Of a DNA stretch of 32,000 nucleotides, positions 9,104 through 16,190 are shown piece by piece. The translations under genes and the position numbers were made by a program. This stretch comes from Candidatus Heimdallarchaeota archaeon B3_Heim. Its GTDB lineage: Archaea; Asgardarchaeota; Heimdallarchaeia; Hodarchaeales; Hodarchaeaceae. Numbering within the stretch: the stretch's first letter is position 1; each line of letters starts with the position of its first letter. The notes under the pieces were generated by a model. The model was not told the DNA's origin. It made no database searches and saw only the letters and a list, made by a program, of their open reading frames with translations. The DNA lies in assembly GCA_003144275.1 (NCBI GenBank), contig NJBF01000023.1, positions 1 to 32,000 of the forward strand. Reading direction: 5' to 3'.

Positions 9104-9685
9104 TCATGAATTCTCATACGAAATGTGAGTTGTTTTGACCTCTGGTTGGTCCCCTTTTTCAAGCTGTTCCTCAGTAATCTCTTCAAATAACTGAAAAAAC
9201 GCTTTTTCTACATTATCTCCATTTTTTGCTGAAGTCACAATAGTCGTAATATTCGGATACGCTGAACGAGGAAGTTCCACTCGAAGTTCTGTCAAATCGG
9301 ATTTATTCCCTAGTAGAATCATAGGTATTTGCTTTCTAATGTTATCTGTACACTCTTTCAGCCAAGATTGTACATTTCTGTAAGTTTGAGCATTTGTTAG
9401 ATCATAGATGATAATAGCTCCACTTGTCCCTGAATAAAAACGAGAACGAAATCGTTTAAAGTGTGTTTGACCAGACATATCCCATAAAACGAAGCGAATT
9501 GGTTTTTTAGTTTTTTTCGTCACGGTATTAAATGGAGAAATATCAACACCAATTGTCGTTTTATAAATACTGGAAAATTTCTTATGAATGAAGCGATTAA
9601 CTAAAGATGTCTTTCCAGTGCCTCCATCACCAATTAAAATTACTTTCAGAGATTTACTTTCTGTAGATTTTGTCATAAATATCAT
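9104..9685 (-). CDS. Ras-superfamily small GTPase (Rab/Ran-like)
   Basis: G1 GDGGTGKT, G2 TTIGVD, G3 WDMSGQ, G4 NKSD, G5 SAK. No C-terminal Cys prenylation motif. The start may be 9685 or 9676. Confidence 0.95.
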   Translation of the reverse strand: MIFMTKSTESKSLKVILIGDGGTGKTSLVNRFIHKKFSSIYKTTIGVDISPFNTVTKKTKKPIRFVLWDMSGQTHFKRFRSRFYSGTSGAIIIYDLTNAQTYRNVQSWLKECTDNIRKQIPMILLGNKSDLTELRVELPRSAYPNITTIVTSAKNGDNVEKAFFQLFEEITEEQLEKGDQPEVKTTHISYENS

Positions 9686-10383
9686 TTCCCAGCTAGAAGG
9701 CGATTAGCGAGTTCCAACGGCAGGTGATGCTTTTTTATCCCAGCAATTGTCTGTGTGGGGTCATATGCTACACGTATAAATTTAGTATTGAAAGACTCCA
9801 TATCAAAAAGAACATATGACGCACGATTATCACCATCACGTGGTTGCCCTACTGATCCGGGGTTCAGAATAATACGGCTGTCCTGTTGTTTTAAGAATGA
9901 GATATGGGTGTGGCCTAAGAATAAGACATCTATTTCAATCAATTCCATAAAATCAAATGTTGATTGGATATCTTCTTCATCTTCTGGATATATATATTGA
10001 TCTAATGGATACTCGGGACCAGCATGAATCATCATTGCTCTGTGATTATCCAGATATAAAGTATACATCAATGGTAATCCATGGAGTAGTTTTCGCTCAT
10101 TTACAGTTAATCCTTGAGTTGCAAGCTCAATTGACGGTAGAGAATCATTACGATAATGTATCGGAATATCTCCTAATGCCGCAGCTTGATCATGATTTCC
10201 TTTGATGACAACTTCGCATCGAGCTAATGCAAGATGAATAGTAGGAATGGGTTCTGTGTAATAACCGACAAGGTCGCCTAAACAATATATCCTGCTTACT
10301 TTATGCTTGTGAATATCTGTAAGAACGGCTTGAAAAGCACTTAAATTTGCATGAATATCCGATATAATAGCAACAGTTGTCAT
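9682..10383 (-). CDS. Calcineurin-like metallophosphoesterase
   Basis: SDIHAN, LGDLVGY, GNHD, HAG, GHTH, NPGSVGQPRDGD. Its stop overlaps the GTPase ATG (ATGA). Confidence 0.93.
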   Translation of the reverse strand: MTTVAIISDIHANLSAFQAVLTDIHKHKVSRIYCLGDLVGYYTEPIPTIHLALARCEVVIKGNHDQAAALGDIPIHYRNDSLPSIELATQGLTVNERKLLHGLPLMYTLYLDNHRAMMIHAGPEYPLDQYIYPEDEEDIQSTFDFMELIEIDVLFLGHTHISFLKQQDSRIILNPGSVGQPRDGDNRASYVLFDMESFNTKFIRVAYDPTQTIAGIKKHHLPLELANRLLAGK

Positions 10384-10520
10384 TCGAACAGCCTTACGTC
10401 ATTATATGTCAAAAAAATCCCCCATGCAGAATATATAACTAATGAGTTTCATATTTAAGAATTTTATTTCTAATTCTGCATAGAACGTTGTTATTATTAA
10501 AGGTAGGATAAGTGCATTAA

Positions 10521-11903
10521 ATGACTGAAATGATAAATCATTACCGTTACACTGTGTTTTTCTTATTTTTAATCCTAAATTTTTACACGTTTGTATTTTC
10601 AGAAGGTCTACCTGCACAATATTCCTTAATAGCAGATGAACGATCGGAAAATCAGGCAGACATCATAGATTCAATCTACAATCGGTATTCCCCAAATGGA
10701 AATATAACAATTTTAGTTGCAGTTGACAGTAATTTAATAGGGACTAATAAGTACTTTTCTGATAAGACAAATGCACAAGCAGTATTTAATGGTTGGCTTG
10801 TTCCTTTCGAAATACGTTTTAATATAAGTTTCCATGTTTTGAATGTTACAACGTTCATTCCAGGTGAAAAAGATTCATTAGATATCAGTATTATTAAAGT
10901 CGCAGAATATTTATCCTGGAATTTCGCTGATACTCAAGATGACCCCTTAGTAGATGGAAATAAGTACGATTTCCTAATAATTTATCAAGAAAAATATGAA
11001 GGGGGCCGCAATCGGGCAAATTCCGTAAATGGCAATGCCTTGATAATAGCTCATGAACAACCTGGCTACCCCTTTTCTATGTGGACTTCAAGGCAATTGA
11101 TTCTCTTACACGAGGTCGGCCATATTTTTGGAGGTGAACATTACGATGAGGGAATTATACCTCCCGAATGGTTTGGTTCCTCAGAATTGAGTATTATGTC
11201 GTATGATAATCTCTCAACCTTGAAATCTGATGGATGGGATCCCGAAGAAATGCCCATTGATGACCACAACTTCGCAATAATTAATTCCTCAAAATATCGA
11301 TTTGATCGCAATGATGCAGATCTCGACTCACTTCCGAATTATTATGAATTCCGGTATGAAATGGATCCTACAAGTGACGATACTTTACAGGATCTTGAGG
11401 ATGATGGGATGACAAATATAGAGGAATATATCTCAGGAACACATCCTAGATTAAGCGATACAGATGGGGATTTGTTTTCAGATTGGGCTGAAAACCTTTT
11501 TGGGTCTTCACCCCTTAACTTATCAGATTTACCAACAATACCCGAGCCTGTAATTTTTCCACAGTCAGAAGATCAATCAATATTTCACGATCAGACAATT
11601 AACATCAAATGGCGAGCGGTGGCCCAGATTAAGGATTCATATTCGATATATACTAATGATTCCCTTATTAAACAAGTAGATTGGGACCAAGAAATCATTC
11701 AATATACATTTGTTCCACAAACAAAAGGTAACTGGGAAATTACCTGTGCTGTAACCGATGACCAGGGACTTAGTGTACAATCAAGCGTATGGATCGAGGT
11801 TATAAATGAAGAAAGCCCTGGAATTATCCCTTTTATCTTCCCCTGGTTTAGCCTATTGTTCTTAATGATTATAATCAAAATTAGAGCAAATAAAAAAATA
11901 TGA
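10521..11903 (+). CDS. Surface-anchored zinc metalloprotease (metzincin) with Asp-rich TSP3-like Ca-binding repeats and a beta-sandwich domain
   Basis: N-terminal signal/TM segment; HEVGHIFGGEH (HEXXHXXGXXH) and Met-turn SIMSY; repeats DADLDSLPNYYE, DLEDDGMTNIEEY, DTDGDLFSDWAE; C-terminal SPG-hydrophobic-KIRANKK anchor. Confidence 0.85.
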   Translation: MTEMINHYRYTVFFLFLILNFYTFVFSEGLPAQYSLIADERSENQADIIDSIYNRYSPNGNITILVAVDSNLIGTNKYFSDKTNAQAVFNGWLVPFEIRFNISFHVLNVTTFIPGEKDSLDISIIKVAEYLSWNFADTQDDPLVDGNKYDFLIIYQEKYEGGRNRANSVNGNALIIAHEQPGYPFSMWTSRQLILLHEVGHIFGGEHYDEGIIPPEWFGSSELSIMSYDNLSTLKSDGWDPEEMPIDDHNFAIINSSKYRFDRNDADLDSLPNYYEFRYEMDPTSDDTLQDLEDDGMTNIEEYISGTHPRLSDTDGDLFSDWAENLFGSSPLNLSDLPTIPEPVIFPQSEDQSIFHDQTINIKWRAVAQIKDSYSIYTNDSLIKQVDWDQEIIQYTFVPQTKGNWEITCAVTDDQGLSVQSSVWIEVINEESPGIIPFIFPWFSLLFLMIIIKIRANKKI

Positions 11904-11925: not shown

Positions 11926-12693
11926 TCATTGGGATAGAAAATAGAGCACCTTTAAACGACCATGAAGCTCAGTAAACAAGCTTTTCCAATGTGACCCTAT
12001 TCCAATGAGCGCGAGGAGATAGGAAACTTCTCCAGAATTATCCTCCACTACTCGAAATAAAATATCAAGTAAACCTCCCTTACGTACGTAATCATTAATT
12101 ATGAGTACTCTTTTATTCCTAATCGCAGGCCTTTTTTGATTGAAATATACCGTAGAGACAAGTTCTTGATCTATAAGATAGGGGTATTGGGATATTTGGT
12201 CTGGTCTTGTAGATGGTGGACGATAAGAAACCGTATACCAAGGTATATTTAGTGTCTGGGAAAATCCAATTGCTAAAGGTACTGCTTCTGAATGAGTTAA
12301 AATGACGTCAAATCTATTATACAGGTTTTCTTTATAGCAAACGAAGTAAGCAAGGAAGTTAAGGGTTGATGGTGTACTTAATAGCTCTGTCAAATCCACT
12401 TGAATGGGTTGAGCCTGAATATCTATATAGATTCTAGGTATCAGTAAATCAGGTACTAAGTTAACTTCCTCCAACAGATAGGATTGAAATAAATCCATCT
12501 TTTTACGAGTTAACTTCGTTTCACCTCTTAAATACCGAGTAAACTGCGAATACGATATATTTAGATCTGAGTTATCAATGTAAAATTCTTTAAATGCCAG
12601 ATAAAACTCATTGGTAGATCGGTACTTCTTTAAACTGAGCCGCAGTCCATAAAGTACCTGATACTGATCCCAAAATCGCTTTTCATCTTTCAA
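11926..12693 (-). CDS. HTH plus type I phosphoribosyltransferase-fold protein (PurR-like regulator or PRTase)
   Basis: N-terminal helix ISYSQFTRYLRGE, EAVPLA motif, and PRPP loop VLIINDYVRKGG (ND in place of DD). Confidence 0.72.
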   Translation of the reverse strand: MKDEKRFWDQYQVLYGLRLSLKKYRSTNEFYLAFKEFYIDNSDLNISYSQFTRYLRGETKLTRKKMDLFQSYLLEEVNLVPDLLIPRIYIDIQAQPIQVDLTELLSTPSTLNFLAYFVCYKENLYNRFDVILTHSEAVPLAIGFSQTLNIPWYTVSYRPPSTRPDQISQYPYLIDQELVSTVYFNQKRPAIRNKRVLIINDYVRKGGLLDILFRVVEDNSGEVSYLLALIGIGSHWKSLFTELHGRLKVLYFLSQ

Positions 12694-12881: not shown

Positions 12882-13730
12882 ATGACCATTTTTCAATCAA
12901 CTGAAAAAGATGTGCAAATATCGAGACAAATAGCTCTCATAGCAGCCTTTACTGCAATAGTTTTTCTTTCAACTTCATTATTTTATATACCACTAATTTC
13001 TTCCACAGGTTTTTTTAATTTAGGGGAAGCTTTTATTTATTTAGCCGCTATAATTGGGGGACCCATAGTTGGAGCTATAGCTGGAGGATTAGGAGCAGCA
13101 ATGGCCGATATGGTACTTGGATACGGATATTTTGCCCCTGCGACTTTAGTTCTTAAAGGATTAGAAGGCTTTGCTGTAGGTTTTCTTTTTAGGAAAAGTC
13201 GTAATATTGATCGAAATATTCGCTATATCTTACTTGGTACGATTTCACTGTTTCTAATTGGTTTTTCTGCGTATGTAACCACTCCTGCATTGAATGGAGT
13301 CGAAGGATCATCAATTATTCAAATCACCTTTCGGTTGTTGGACCCTAGTTTAATACCTCAACATCTTCTTGATCCTACCATTGAAGATGTTTACCAGACA
13401 TTAGTAATTGACATTCCTGGAATTTTAATTCTAGCTACCGCCTTATTAATATGTCTAATAATGTGGTTCATCGAATTGAGGATGGGAGAGAAAGGACAGA
13501 TGATTCTTTCTTGCTTATTAGCTGGACCTATTATTGTTGTAGGTTACTTTTTATATGAGATTTTTATTTTGACTCTCTCCCCAGACCCTGCTGTGGCTTT
13601 TCAGTTAGCGGTGACAGAGGTTCCATTTAACATAGCACAAGTAGTATTTGGAACTTCGATTGCTATTCCTATTGTCTCATACCTACAAGAACTTGGTATT
13701 TTACAAGATGAAAGAGTACCTCCTTCATAG
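12882..13730 (+). CDS. ECF transporter S component with an internal insertion
   Basis: IALIAAFTAIVF, GFFNLGEAFIY..AIIGGP..GAIAGGLGAAMAD..LGY..FAP.TLVLKGLEG, and C-terminal EVPFNIAQ. Confidence 0.88.
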   Translation: MTIFQSTEKDVQISRQIALIAAFTAIVFLSTSLFYIPLISSTGFFNLGEAFIYLAAIIGGPIVGAIAGGLGAAMADMVLGYGYFAPATLVLKGLEGFAVGFLFRKSRNIDRNIRYILLGTISLFLIGFSAYVTTPALNGVEGSSIIQITFRLLDPSLIPQHLLDPTIEDVYQTLVIDIPGILILATALLICLIMWFIELRMGEKGQMILSCLLAGPIIVVGYFLYEIFILTLSPDPAVAFQLAVTEVPFNIAQVVFGTSIAIPIVSYLQELGILQDERVPPS

Positions 13731-13770
13731 AAAGAACGAGGACAATAAATGAATAATTTCCATAAGCGTA

Positions 13771-14643
13771 TTGACGGATATGGTCATTTCTTTCCTTTTA
13801 GAATGTATCATTGGAGAACTACTATTGTCTTTAGTTGATATTCGAAATTTATCAGTCTCTTATCAAGAAGAATCTAGCTGGGCTTTAAGAGATATTAATA
13901 TTACAGTAGAGAAAGGTGAACTCATCGTTATTGCTGGTTCTAGCGGATGTGGTAAAAGTACCTTAGCTCAGACAATAGTAGGACTAATTCCTACTTTTGT
14001 TAAGGCGAAAGTAGAAGGAACAATCAAGATCAACGAAACTCTGGTAAATGAACTATCAAGAAAACAACTTGTTAATATCATAGGTTATGTTCCCCAATAT
14101 CCATCCGATTTTACGACATCCCTGTTAGTGGAAGAGGAAGTAGCTTTTTTACTTGAGAATCTGGCCTATCCATCGGAAGAAATTCAAACTCGTATCCCCC
14201 AAGTTTTACACAAACTCAATATTCTTGATCTTCGAAACAAATTGATACCAGAATTAAGTTCAGGCGAGTTGCAGCGAGTAGCAATAGCAACTGTATTGGC
14301 ACACCAACCACAAATACTCATATTAGACGAACCAATGGCTCGTATCGATCCTAAGAGTGAAATCATGTTAGCTGATCTTTTGAAGGATTTATCTGAACAG
14401 GGGCATCTTATTCTTGCATTTGAACATAGATTAGATTATCTCTTGTCTCGAGCTGATCGTCTATTACTTCTAGATAATGGGAAATTGATCGGTGATGGTA
14501 AACCACAGACGCTTTTGGACAAAATAAGGGATATCGACTTACCTGAAGTATCAGAACTTAAGTGGCCGAACATAACACAGAGAAGTTTAACTTTAGAAGA
14601 AGCAAAATCTTCAATACTTGAGATTTTTAGAAAAGAACGATAA
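13771..14643 (+). CDS. ecfA1: ECF transporter ATPase
   Basis: Walker A GSSGCGKST, LSSGELQRVAIA, ILDEP, FEH. The true start is probably a little downstream. Confidence 0.9.
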   Translation: MTDMVISFLLECIIGELLLSLVDIRNLSVSYQEESSWALRDINITVEKGELIVIAGSSGCGKSTLAQTIVGLIPTFVKAKVEGTIKINETLVNELSRKQLVNIIGYVPQYPSDFTTSLLVEEEVAFLLENLAYPSEEIQTRIPQVLHKLNILDLRNKLIPELSSGELQRVAIATVLAHQPQILILDEPMARIDPKSEIMLADLLKDLSEQGHLILAFEHRLDYLLSRADRLLLLDNGKLIGDGKPQTLLDKIRDIDLPEVSELKWPNITQRSLTLEEAKSSILEIFRKER

Positions 14644-14685
14644 TTAACGAATAATGAATGGGATAATATATAGTAAGGGATATTA

Positions 14686-15474
14686 ATGGTTACCGTTAGC
14701 GTAGAAGATTTATGGTTTCGCTATTCTGGATCAAAAGGATATATTCTTAAATCTTTTACACTAAAAAAGGGAACTCCAAGCACTATTGGACTATTGGGCA
14801 TAAATGGTTGTGGGAAAACAACTTTGTTGAAATTATTAGGTGGGATTCTTTCACCTTCCAAAGGAAATATCAGAATAAATTCCGAACTGAGGGAAGGGAT
14901 TAGGGAGCCTAATCGAATTATTTACATTCCTGAAAATGCGAGACTATTTTTGGTTGGGCCAACTCTTCGTAAGGATCTGAATCGTGTTGTAACTGATCTA
15001 GAGCTCGTAAATCTACTAATTGAAAAATATAAATTGGGTTTTTTGGCTGACAAGAAGATTTACAACTTAAGTGAAGGCCAACGAAGACTTTCAGCTCTTT
15101 TTATTGCATTCCAGATTCCGAGTAAGTTAGTATTATTAGATGAACCAACAATAGGTCTTGATCGAAAAGGAAGACAACTTCTATTTCATCTACTTGAAGT
15201 AGCAAAAGAACAAGGAAAAATCGTTTTTGTATCAACTAATGATTCGCGAATCTTCCCAAAGCTAGATGAACTAGTAGTAATTCGCGATGGGCTGTTATTT
15301 CAAAGAGGATCACCAAAACATGTATTATTTATGCTCGAAGATAATTCAGAATTAATTCCAAATCAGATACCTCGGTTGATTCGCTCCCTTGAAGTACAAC
15401 TTAAGCAAAAATTACCACACTGCCTCACTCCAGAAGAAATGAATCACGTTATCGAGGAATGGAGGGTGAAATAA
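14686..15474 (+). CDS. ecfA2: ECF transporter ATPase (second subunit)
   Basis: GINGCGKTT, LSEGQRR, LLDEPTIGLD. The H-switch reads STND. Confidence 0.85.
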   Translation: MVTVSVEDLWFRYSGSKGYILKSFTLKKGTPSTIGLLGINGCGKTTLLKLLGGILSPSKGNIRINSELREGIREPNRIIYIPENARLFLVGPTLRKDLNRVVTDLELVNLLIEKYKLGFLADKKIYNLSEGQRRLSALFIAFQIPSKLVLLDEPTIGLDRKGRQLLFHLLEVAKEQGKIVFVSTNDSRIFPKLDELVVIRDGLLFQRGSPKHVLFMLEDNSELIPNQIPRLIRSLEVQLKQKLPHCLTPEEMNHVIEEWRVK

Positions 15475-16190
15475 TGTCATTTATGCTTAGAAGATTGTAT
15501 AAAGGATTTTCATATCATCCTGATGCGATACACATACATCCTCTAGTTAGTTTGACCATTCTAGGTTTACAATTTCTATTCCTATTAATTGGGAATGATA
15601 TTACAATTTTAATTCCTTTATTAGTTCTTATAGTTATAGAAAATTTGTTTTACGGGAATTTCCATGGGATGATAAGCCTTCTTAGAGCTATGATACCTTT
15701 ACTAGTTTTTCTTGGAATTTTAACCTTTTTATTCGGAGGCTTGATTCTGGCATATCTTCTGATTTTACGTCTGTTGGTTGGAGCGCTTTCCTGTTCGATT
15801 TTTTTTGCTGTAACTAATCCTTCTGATCTAGCACGATTTCTTGAAAAATGCAGAATTCCAACTAAATTAGCTCTAATACCGTCTCTTGCCTTAACAATGG
15901 TTCCTCGAGTAGCAAAAGACGCAGAGGAAACATTTGACACACTTGAATTACGAGGTGAAATTCAAGGATTCTTCCTTAGATGGTTGCCAAAAACTCTAGC
16001 AATTTTTGTCGCCTCAATTTTATACCGATCTGAATTTCTAGCACAATCTCTCTATTTTCGTGGGTTTGGTATTCAAAAAAGAACCTATTATAGAACGGTT
16101 CCCTTCCAACGAATCGATCTCATCAGGAGTACTCTCTGGCTTTTATTTATCCTTCTCCTACCTATATTAAAAACTTTTAAAATTTATTAA
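15459..16190 (+). CDS. ecfT: ECF transporter transmembrane T component
   Basis: TMs, TNPSDL, and two XRG coupling motifs (ELRG, YFRGF). It follows two ATPases and an S unit. Confidence 0.87.
   Translation: MEGEIMSFMLRRLYKGFSYHPDAIHIHPLVSLTILGLQFLFLLIGNDITILIPLLVLIVIENLFYGNFHGMISLLRAMIPLLVFLGILTFLFGGLILAYLLILRLLVGALSCSIFFAVTNPSDLARFLEKCRIPTKLALIPSLALTMVPRVAKDAEETFDTLELRGEIQGFFLRWLPKTLAIFVASILYRSEFLAQSLYFRGFGIQKRTYYRTVPFQRIDLIRSTLWLLFILLLPILKTFKIY

Follow-up and report, generated by a model that had tools for sequence, protein, structure and literature searches.

The stretch analysed here (the window) comprises 32,000 nucleotides (nt) of contig NJBF01000023.1 (positions 1 to 32,000; assembly GCA_003144275.1) from Candidatus Heimdallarchaeota archaeon B3_Heim, a member of the Hodarchaeales, the archaeal order held closest to eukaryotes. 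On its minus strand are two adjacent open reading frames (ORFs), 9682-10383 (233 amino acids, aa) and 9104-9685 (193 aa), which encode a metallophosphoesterase (MPE), referred to here as MPE-A, and a small Rab-like GTPase, referred to here as GTPase-A; NCBIfam has only generic names for the two proteins. A preliminary description, made from the sequence of the window, had pointed to an ATGA overlap between the GTPase gene and a gene for a calcineurin-like phosphoesterase, and this is borne out by both the sequence and Pfam. In the window and in the three loci most closely related to it, the longest ORFs share 4 nt; among the other fetched loci a gap of 2-7 nt separates them. GTPase-A has a second in-frame ATG at 9676, which is a better fit to the N-termini of its orthologs; if this is the true start, 5 nt lie between the MPE-A stop and the GTPase-A start and there is no overlap. 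Judged from the reading frames, the coupling of the two genes is equally tight with either start. No terminator-like sites were found within the pair.

GTPase-A and MPE-A occur together in the Hodarchaeales. GTPase-A is found in 17 of 24 genomes of this order, and each of the 17 has an MPE-A ortholog (58-97% identity) as the immediate upstream neighbour, on the strand of the GTPase gene. The remaining 7 genomes, two of which are 96% complete, have neither gene and carry only MPE paralogs of at most 45% identity. The pair is unbroken throughout, although its downstream neighbours vary by subclade (MFS/EamA or Hsp20/Cdc48). When we examined 80 loci of MPE homologs from all phyla, a small GTPase adjoined only the one member of the orthogroup, and none of the 79 in other lineages (0/79). 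Both genes are under purifying selection, with ratios of nonsynonymous to synonymous substitution (dN/dS) against relatives of 0.02-0.16 for GTPase-A and 0.05-0.16 for MPE-A. A lack of conserved linkage to the phosphoesterase was among the findings that the preliminary description named as counting against it, and the synteny survey finds the linkage in 17/17 genomes; the genome comparison thus indicates that the pairing of GTPase-A with MPE-A is real.

Within the same genus there are two more GTPase-phosphoesterase cassettes, B and C. Cassette B, present in 18 genomes of the genus, consists of MPE-B (41-45% identity to MPE-A) and, after it, a single Rab-like GTPase or two in tandem; it was looked for in the source genome and was not found there. 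Its GTPases have DIAGQ or DVAGQ, with Ala at the position of Ras residue 59, and are without the TTHxSY tail of GTPase-A, and their MPE partner is intact. The cassette B loci (L004:4965-6370, L005:4169-6129 and L095-L104) are flanked by genes for a MoxR-type AAA protein, a VWA protein (CoxE), a protein with a weak MAPKK1_Int/roadblock-like match (3.7e-4) and a radical-SAM-like protein. Cassette C is in the source genome (contig C54:37908-39393; locus L001:4626-7374), where a 93-aa ORF with no Pfam match is followed by GTPase-C, then, after 4 nt, by a 309-aa Metallophos_3 enzyme (6.1e-20), MPE-C, and by a membrane protein of the DUF63 family. All genomes with GTPase-C (15/15) have the Metallophos_3 gene next to it, and the nearest relatives of the cassette C genes outside the genus have no GTPase-MPE partner. 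MPE-C has GNV in place of GNH, and so lacks the His of motif III; this protein also gives a match to PDC-S10 in PADLOC (1.4e-13) and a weak match to MPPED2 in the PDB. Cassette B is paralogous to cassette A (the MPE-A/GTPase-A pair), while the Metallophos_3 enzyme of cassette C is unrelated to MPE-A.

GTPase-A belongs to a discrete orthogroup, as indicated by a sharp fall in identity: approximately 67 database proteins match it at 55-99% identity and the next best match is at only 45%. The orthogroup is present in 17 of 400 Asgard genomes (85 genera sampled, 8 candidates scored per genome), all from one genus-level group. The features that define the Ras superfamily (the G1 P-loop, the switch I Thr, G3 DxxG, G4 NKxD and G5 SAK) are all present in GTPase-A. 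Over the 62 orthologs in which residue conservation was counted, the G1, G4 and G5 residues, Thr44 of switch I, D69, S71, G72 and Q73 are invariant (62/62). None of the 62 has a Cys within its last 12 residues, and the protein in the window ends in ...TTHISYENS. The source names of the close homologs are Hodarchaeales or Hodarchaeota, with some records labelled Thorarchaeota. Two of the latter, JBHLRO010000033.1 (L015) and P0039, labelled 'Candidatus Thorarchaeota archaeon', bear the MPE-A/GTPase-A pair; the contig range of L015, 30,616 bp, is identical to that of the pair locus in a same-genus genome (G014), and its NCBI label thus seems outdated or wrong.

MPE-A is predicted to be catalytically intact. 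In addition to its Metallophos_2 match, it matches the Pfam family Metallophos (3.4e-11); its best solved relative, 3rqz, is uncharacterised and aligns over the full length, and weaker matches are obtained to 2gju, 1nnw and 3qfm (nothing usable was found in the literature on the 3qfm protein). The two-metal motifs of Metallophos_2 (PF12850) are all in place (SDIH, LGDLVGY, GNHD, IHAGP and GHTH), and these supply the DxH, GD, GNHD, H and GHTH elements on which the prediction of an active enzyme rests. Relatives with 31-39% identity are common in archaea and bacteria alike: with the signature NPGSVGQPRD as a search pattern, we recovered 592 relatives from both. Elsewhere its members are fused to Ppx-GppA/HD, DHH/DHHA1, ATP-grasp and CBS domains, which hints at substrates of a nucleotide type. 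Two MPE-A orthologs (L009:5800-6513 and L010:1679-2437) have GNND for GNHD in motif III; a close relative of one of them retains GNHD, so that the general-acid His appears to have been lost recently in a single lineage. A role of the pair in anti-phage defence was considered and set aside, as PADLOC gave no match to MPE-A and only a weak P-loop match of GTPase-A to PtuA (2e-4).

We lean, by a modest degree, towards interpreting the pair as a lineage-specific switch-enzyme module of one Hodarchaeales genus, in which GTPase-A would control the MPE-A with which it is probably co-transcribed and translationally coupled. GTPase-A, with its nucleotide-binding motifs and catalytic Gln intact, would cycle between GTP and GDP forms and in one nucleotide state would bind MPE-A, gating or localising it; MPE-A would then cleave a phosphoester or phosphoanhydride substrate, probably one derived from a nucleotide. 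Eukaryotic small GTPases recruit phosphoesterase effectors in a like manner. The observed basis for a module is the gene order, the overlap, the co-occurrence, the purifying selection, the intact active-site motifs and the recurrence of the theme in three cassettes. We also count in its favour the apparent parallel evolution of the two proteins, both of which lie on long stem branches of their trees (1.08-1.14 changes per column for GTPase-A and 1.17 for MPE-A), and the rarity of such an arrangement, as Asgard small GTPases are reported not to share operons with regulators in general (PMC10933270).

A number of points weigh against a module of this kind. Physical binding, the direction of control and the substrate are elements that we infer, and the support for the GTPase-phosphatase signalling pair proposed in the preliminary description comes from conserved linkage in comparative genomics (17/17, with two further cassettes). 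In three A orthologs (L014:4022-4033, L108 and L110) exactly two codons lie between the TGA of the MPE gene and the ATG of the GTPase, which is in frame with it (GK*QSM, GK*NSM, GK*STM), so that read-through of the stop would give an MPE-GTPase fusion. An AlphaFold2 model of such a read-through fusion from an ortholog has a predicted local distance difference test score (pLDDT) of 90 and a predicted template modelling score (pTM) of 0.67, with no confident interface, where by our own estimate a confident interface is expected at a pTM of approximately 0.85; the result leans negative, from a mostly unpaired alignment. The linker and the tail are below 50 pLDDT in the model, the tail being disordered. 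A look through the 120 longer MPE homologs listed gave no protein in which an MPE is fused to a Ras domain. The trees give mixed results on whether the A and B cassettes arose by duplication of a whole pair: a quick tree joined GTPase-A with GTPase-B (SH-aLRT, the Shimodaira-Hasegawa-like approximate likelihood ratio test, 89), a careful tree did not, and the approximately unbiased (AU) test did not reject a joint GTPase-A/B clade (p = 0.40); in the MPE tree A and B lie in a polytomy. Finally, since the module is limited to one genus, the adjacency must in part reflect shared ancestry.

This last point is the core of an alternative in which MPE-A and GTPase-A are co-transcribed but functionally independent, their adjacency being synteny inherited within a young clade. 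All three cassettes are limited to the one genus-level group, the wider synteny (a zincin-like gene and ECF transporter genes) is kept as well, and the AlphaFold2 model without a confident interface fits this explanation too. However, the flanks change across subclades while the pair keeps its close spacing (an overlap of 4 nt, or 2-7 nt between the ORFs), and presence and absence are strictly joint (17 genomes with both genes, 7 with neither). Moreover, the theme of a GTPase with an MPE occurs three times with two unrelated MPE families, in a source genome (3.95 Mb, 94% complete) that has only 7 Metallophos_2-type matches and approximately 45 GTPases among thousands of genes. We regard functional independence as distinctly unlikely. 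Still less do we expect that the main role of MPE-A is a non-catalytic one, as scaffold or regulator of GTPase-A, a platform for GTPase-activating proteins (GAPs) or guanine nucleotide exchange factors (GEFs) in the manner of Vps29. Vps29 offers a precedent, as a scaffold of the MPE fold that takes part in the Rab7 cycle and in retromer helps to control Rab7 (PMC3101248, PMC5770787), and the GNND of two A orthologs, the GNV of MPE-C and a weak local match of MPE-A to Entamoeba Vps29 (35 residues, 7.8e-5) are all in keeping with it. Against it, the window protein, like nearly all A and B orthologs, has intact metal-binding and catalytic motifs, and elsewhere in the source genome there is a separate 166-aa protein of the MJ0936/Vps29 type that aligns to Vps29 and MJ0936 over the full length. 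For MPE-A to serve in this way would therefore be quite improbable. As that 166-aa gene fills the Vps29 type and the match of MPE-A to Vps29, a protein of about 180-190 aa, is confined to 35 residues, MPE-A is ruled out as the Vps29 of this genome. The retromer system of Vps29 with Rab7 and TBC1D5 likewise ties an MPE-fold protein to a Rab-type GTPase, and Vps29 and MPE-A are both members of PF12850; however, Vps29 is reported to be a scaffold without catalytic activity (PMC3101248), whereas no catalytic motif is missing from MPE-A, and the likeness of MPE-A to Vps29 is local only.

A further possibility concerns Ser71, which, by comparison of the orthologs, is the fixed distinctive feature of GTPase-A. 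The residue in the DMSGQ of GTPase-A corresponds to Ala59 of Ras and is Ser in 62/62 orthologs, and GTPase-C has Ser at the same position (WDLSGQ, 13/13). Among the approximately 34 paralogs of the source genome with a recognisable G3 motif, DxSGQ is found in only 4, which include both MPE-linked GTPases. The other two (WDLSGQ; C23:16561-17127 and C4:10452-10994, loci L121 and L122) have no recognisable phosphatase neighbour; beside them are proteins of 222 and 245 aa with no Pfam match even at E = 1. According to Johnson et al. (bioRxiv 10.1101/2021.06.23.449327), Ser or Thr at position 59 leads to autophosphorylation in H-RAS, RALA, RAB1B and EF-Tu, and folding of the protein shields the phosphate from a generic enzyme, lambda phosphatase. 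By the motif definition of that study GTPase-A carries the autophosphorylation motif in its sequence. The hydroxyl residue at position 59 is thus shared with the RAS A59T, RALA, RAB1B and EF-Tu variants of Johnson et al. (bioRxiv 10.1101/2021.06.23.449327) and is invariably Ser in GTPase-A; no dedicated phosphatase partner was described there, whereas a phosphoesterase is co-encoded with GTPase-A.

From these observations one can construct a model in which GTPase-A or GTPase-C phosphorylates its own invariant Ser at the Ras Ala59 position from the gamma-phosphate of GTP, the phosphate on Ser71 alters nucleotide exchange and effector binding, and the co-encoded MPE, as a phosphatase dedicated to a buried phosphate, removes it and resets the switch. 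We consider this unlikely, although several observations fit it. The invariance of the Ser in both orthogroups, the rarity of DxSGQ among the paralogs, with both MPE-linked GTPases among the four that have it, and the published autophosphorylation with a phosphatase-shielded product (bioRxiv 10.1101/2021.06.23.449327) all agree with such a cycle. So does the recruitment of two unrelated MPE families (Metallophos_2 and Metallophos_3), which suggests that phosphoesterase chemistry, and not one particular substrate pocket, was favoured. However, the cassette B GTPases have Ala at this position and yet retain an intact MPE partner, the two other DxSGQ paralogs lack a recognisable phosphatase neighbour, and MPE-C is without the His of motif III (GNV). 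In addition, the MPE-A family is widespread without a GTPase partner, and its fusions suggest nucleotide substrates. A kinase-free phospho-switch placed atop the GTPase cycle, evolved in Hodarchaeales and recruited at least two times with unrelated phosphoesterases (cassettes A and C), is a tentative idea to which we give low weight. If Ser71 does autophosphorylate and MPE-A erases the mark, the pair would be a natural example of position-59 regulation with its own eraser.

The preliminary description had also proposed that GTPase-A carries a mixed Rab and Ran signature and may be informative on the divergence of these two families. The motifs that it quoted are all present (GDGGTGKT, residues 19-26; GVDISP, 46-51; PIRFVLWD, 62-69; WDMSGQ, 68-73; FYSGT, 83-87; IIYDLT, 92-97), including the Glu-rich tail without Cys, but the inference drawn from them is not supported by the comparisons, as the likeness to Ran is confined to residues 10-75, Thr23 is variable and the family is limited to one genus. 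With the full-length protein, Rabs take all of the top 60 places among the PDB matches, with scores of at least 100 bits, and Ran takes none (Rab11 at 118.8 bits, followed by Sec4, Rab1, Ypt7, Rab35 and Rab10; the Thorarchaeota Rab 7ezb at 104.6 bits), and with residues 76-174 Rabs are again alone among the top 60. With residues 10-75, Rab7 (49.8 bits) and Ran (46.5 bits) are close in the PDB ranking. A control argues that this signal is mostly generic and that the GGT P-loop is worth few bits: over the same region, a sister paralog with the P-loop GDGAVGKT scores 53-50 bits with Ypt6/Rab7 and 42 bits with Ran/Gsp1. A homolog search with residues 10-75 only returned nothing beyond the orthogroup, and no Ran. 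Residue 23 itself is Thr in 35, Ala in 20, Val in 5, Ser in 1 and Cys in 1 of the 62 orthologs, so that the conserved GDGGTGKT P-loop of Ran is found in the window copy and varies in the orthogroup; the commonest P-loop among the paralogs of the source genome is GDGGVGKT.

The C-terminus and the trees give a similar result. Ran ends in a C-terminal helix and an acidic terminus of the DEDDDL type. GTPase-A has no such end, its tail being TTH[IV]SY[ED]; nor does it have the C-terminal Cys by which eukaryotic Rabs are prenylated, and none of the paralog tails examined in the source genome has a terminal Cys of the prenylation type. The RabF1-F5 motif set is reportedly that of Pereira-Leal and Seabra in 2000; of these motifs, IGVD (F1), RFRS (F3) and YDLT (F5) are near Rab1/Rab11, while RFVLW (F2) and FYSGT (F4) are partial. 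In trees of Hodarchaeales paralogs and eukaryotic Rabs (without Ras, Rho and Ran), the GTPase-A orthogroup is a 100/100 clade on its long stem, within a polytomous backbone of Hodarchaeales paralogs, and it is excluded from the eukaryotic Rab clade (Ypt1/Rab1, Rab11-like and EukProt sequences; support 99/96). GTPase-A shares with eukaryotic Rab11, Sec4, Rab1 and Rab7, its best matches (119-100 bits full length), the catalytic Gln and the switch layout, but it lies outside their clade, lacks the prenylation Cys and the hypervariable region and keeps RabF2 and RabF4 only in part. Its neighbours in the atlas are Rab-like, IFT27 and Rab11/Rab30-type clusters. Cys-less tails are general for archaeal Rab-like proteins (Surkont and Pereira-Leal 2016, PMC4915359), and GTPase-A has the characters given there for Asgard RasL and archaeal Rab-like proteins.

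Could GTPase-A nevertheless be a Rab/Ran intermediate that keeps information on the divergence of Ran from Rab? Near parity of Ran with Rab7 over residues 10-75 would agree with this, as would the features that the window copy shares with eukaryotic Ran: the GDGGTGKT P-loop, the GV..P segment with its Pro after switch I, and an acidic tail without Cys. Yet the P-loop Thr is not conserved and GDGGVGKT is common among the paralogs, the GDGAVGKT sister paralog draws Ran/Gsp1 as well, the tail is TTHxSY with no Ran acidic motif, the remainder of the protein is Rab-like in its PDB matches, and the atlas neighbours of GTPase-A are Rab-like as well. Moreover, the family is a long derived branch among Hodarchaeales paralogs, in 17/400 Asgard genomes of a single archaeal genus, and published trees place no Asgard sequence as the specific sister of a single eukaryotic family (bioRxiv 10.1101/2024.02.28.582541). 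The split of Ran from Rab is older than the last eukaryotic common ancestor, and a derived family limited to one genus can tell little about it. We therefore give the intermediate hardly any credence, and the alignments indicate that GTPase-A resembles Ran through one P-loop position that varies in the orthogroup, together with features common to archaeal Rab-like proteins. The GTPase-A/MPE-A pair has no bearing on the origin of Ran.

As a member of the Asgard RasL or archaeal Rab-like group (Klinger et al. 2016; PMC4915359; 7ezb), GTPase-A shares with the group its G domain and all G motifs, the RabF-like IGVD, RFRS and YDLT, the lack of a C-terminal Cys and the occurrence of dozens of paralogs per genome. 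It differs by its fixed Ser71, the TTHxSY tail, the long stem and an obligate operon partner. The expansion of Ras-superfamily GTPases in Asgard archaea noted in the preliminary description holds for the source genome, which has 49 matches to PF00071 (Ras family). MPE-A shares its metal motifs and NPGSVGQPRD with MPEs of the YfcE/MJ0936/3rqz type (PF12850; 3rqz, 2gju, 1nnw, 3qfm), but within that type the coupling to a small GTPase is limited to the A and B clades of the Hodarchaeales, and the MPE-A stem is long; no member of the 3rqz-type family this close to MPE-A has a known substrate. In the MglA-MglB and the Asgard GTPase-roadblock/longin operons a prokaryotic small GTPase likewise lies beside a dedicated partner gene, but there the partner is a GAP or GEF platform, whereas that of GTPase-A is an enzyme of the calcineurin-like phosphoesterase type.

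The coordinates of the features are collected in Table 1. Divergent from the pair and kept there in most pair loci is a gene (10521-11903, plus strand) for a 460-aa protein with N-terminal and C-terminal hydrophobic segments, an HEVGH zincin motif and a weak Reprolysin_5 match (0.0025). The next gene (11926-12693, minus strand), which adjoins the pair in most relatives, encodes a 255-aa protein without a Pfam match; an acidic/hydrophobic stretch in its C-terminal half (VLIINDYV) resembles that of phosphoribosyltransferases. Beyond it, at 12882-16190 on the plus strand, are a membrane-protein gene, two ABC ATPase-like genes and one further gene, which have the appearance of an ECF-type transporter module and are kept beside the pair in relatives.

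Table 1. Features of the MPE-A/GTPase-A locus, in positions of the window
Feature	Position	Strand	Evidence or conservation
MPE-A (metallophosphoesterase, 233 aa), first gene of the pair	9682..10383	-	Pfam Metallophos_2 8.4e-23; PDB 3rqz 7.9e-28
MPE motif I SDIH (Asp9, His11, metal ligands)	10351..10362	-	invariant in MPE-A, MPE-B and relatives
MPE motif III GNHD (residues 62-65)	10189..10200	-	intact in the window and 14/16 A orthologs; two with GNND
MPE motif GHTH (residues 157-160)	9904..9915	-	invariant
Signature NPGSVGQPRD (residues 174-183) of the 3rqz-like MPE family	9835..9864	-	invariant block
ATGA stop/start overlap, MPE-A TGA with GTPase-A ATG	9682..9685	-	sequence read directly
GTPase-A (Rab-like, Asgard RasL-type, 193 aa)	9104..9685	-	Pfam Ras 4.7e-39; PDB Rab11, Sec4, Rab1, Thorarchaeota Rab
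P-loop GDGGTGKT (residues 19-26; T23 the 'Ran-like' residue)	9608..9631	-	T23 variable among 62 orthologs
Switch I/RabF1 region YKTTIGVDISP (residues 41-51; Thr44)	9533..9565	-	T44 in 62/62, P51 in 60/62; aligned to Rab11 TIGVEF
G3 motif D69-M70-S71-G72-Q73; Ser71 codon 9473-9475, Ras Ala59 position	9467..9481	-	S71 and Q73 in 62/62
G4 motif NKSD (residues 127-130), guanine specificity	9296..9307	-	N127, K128, D130 in 62/62
G5 motif SAK (residues 152-154)	9224..9232	-	62/62 orthologs
C-terminal tail motif TTHISY (residues 185-190), without Cys, family-specific	9116..9133	-	TTH[IVL][SPT][YF] in 50/62
137-nt intergenic region common to the pair and the divergent zincin-like gene; presumed promoter region of the pair	10384..10520	.	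divergent neighbour kept in most pair loci

Asgard genomes encode dozens of Ras-like GTPases, and a partner can be named for almost none of them; the GTPase-A/MPE-A pair is a rare case in which a likely one can be read from the genome. A literature search for GTPase-metallophosphoesterase operons in Asgard archaea found no paper that describes them. The value of the finding is limited by the distribution of this putative module in one genus. With three conserved GTPase-phosphoesterase operons in this genus, a switch can be cloned together with its likely partner and the two tested. If MPE-A is indeed the effector of GTPase-A, the pair would be an instance of an archaeal small GTPase that controls a phosphoesterase, a logic that is common in eukaryotes.

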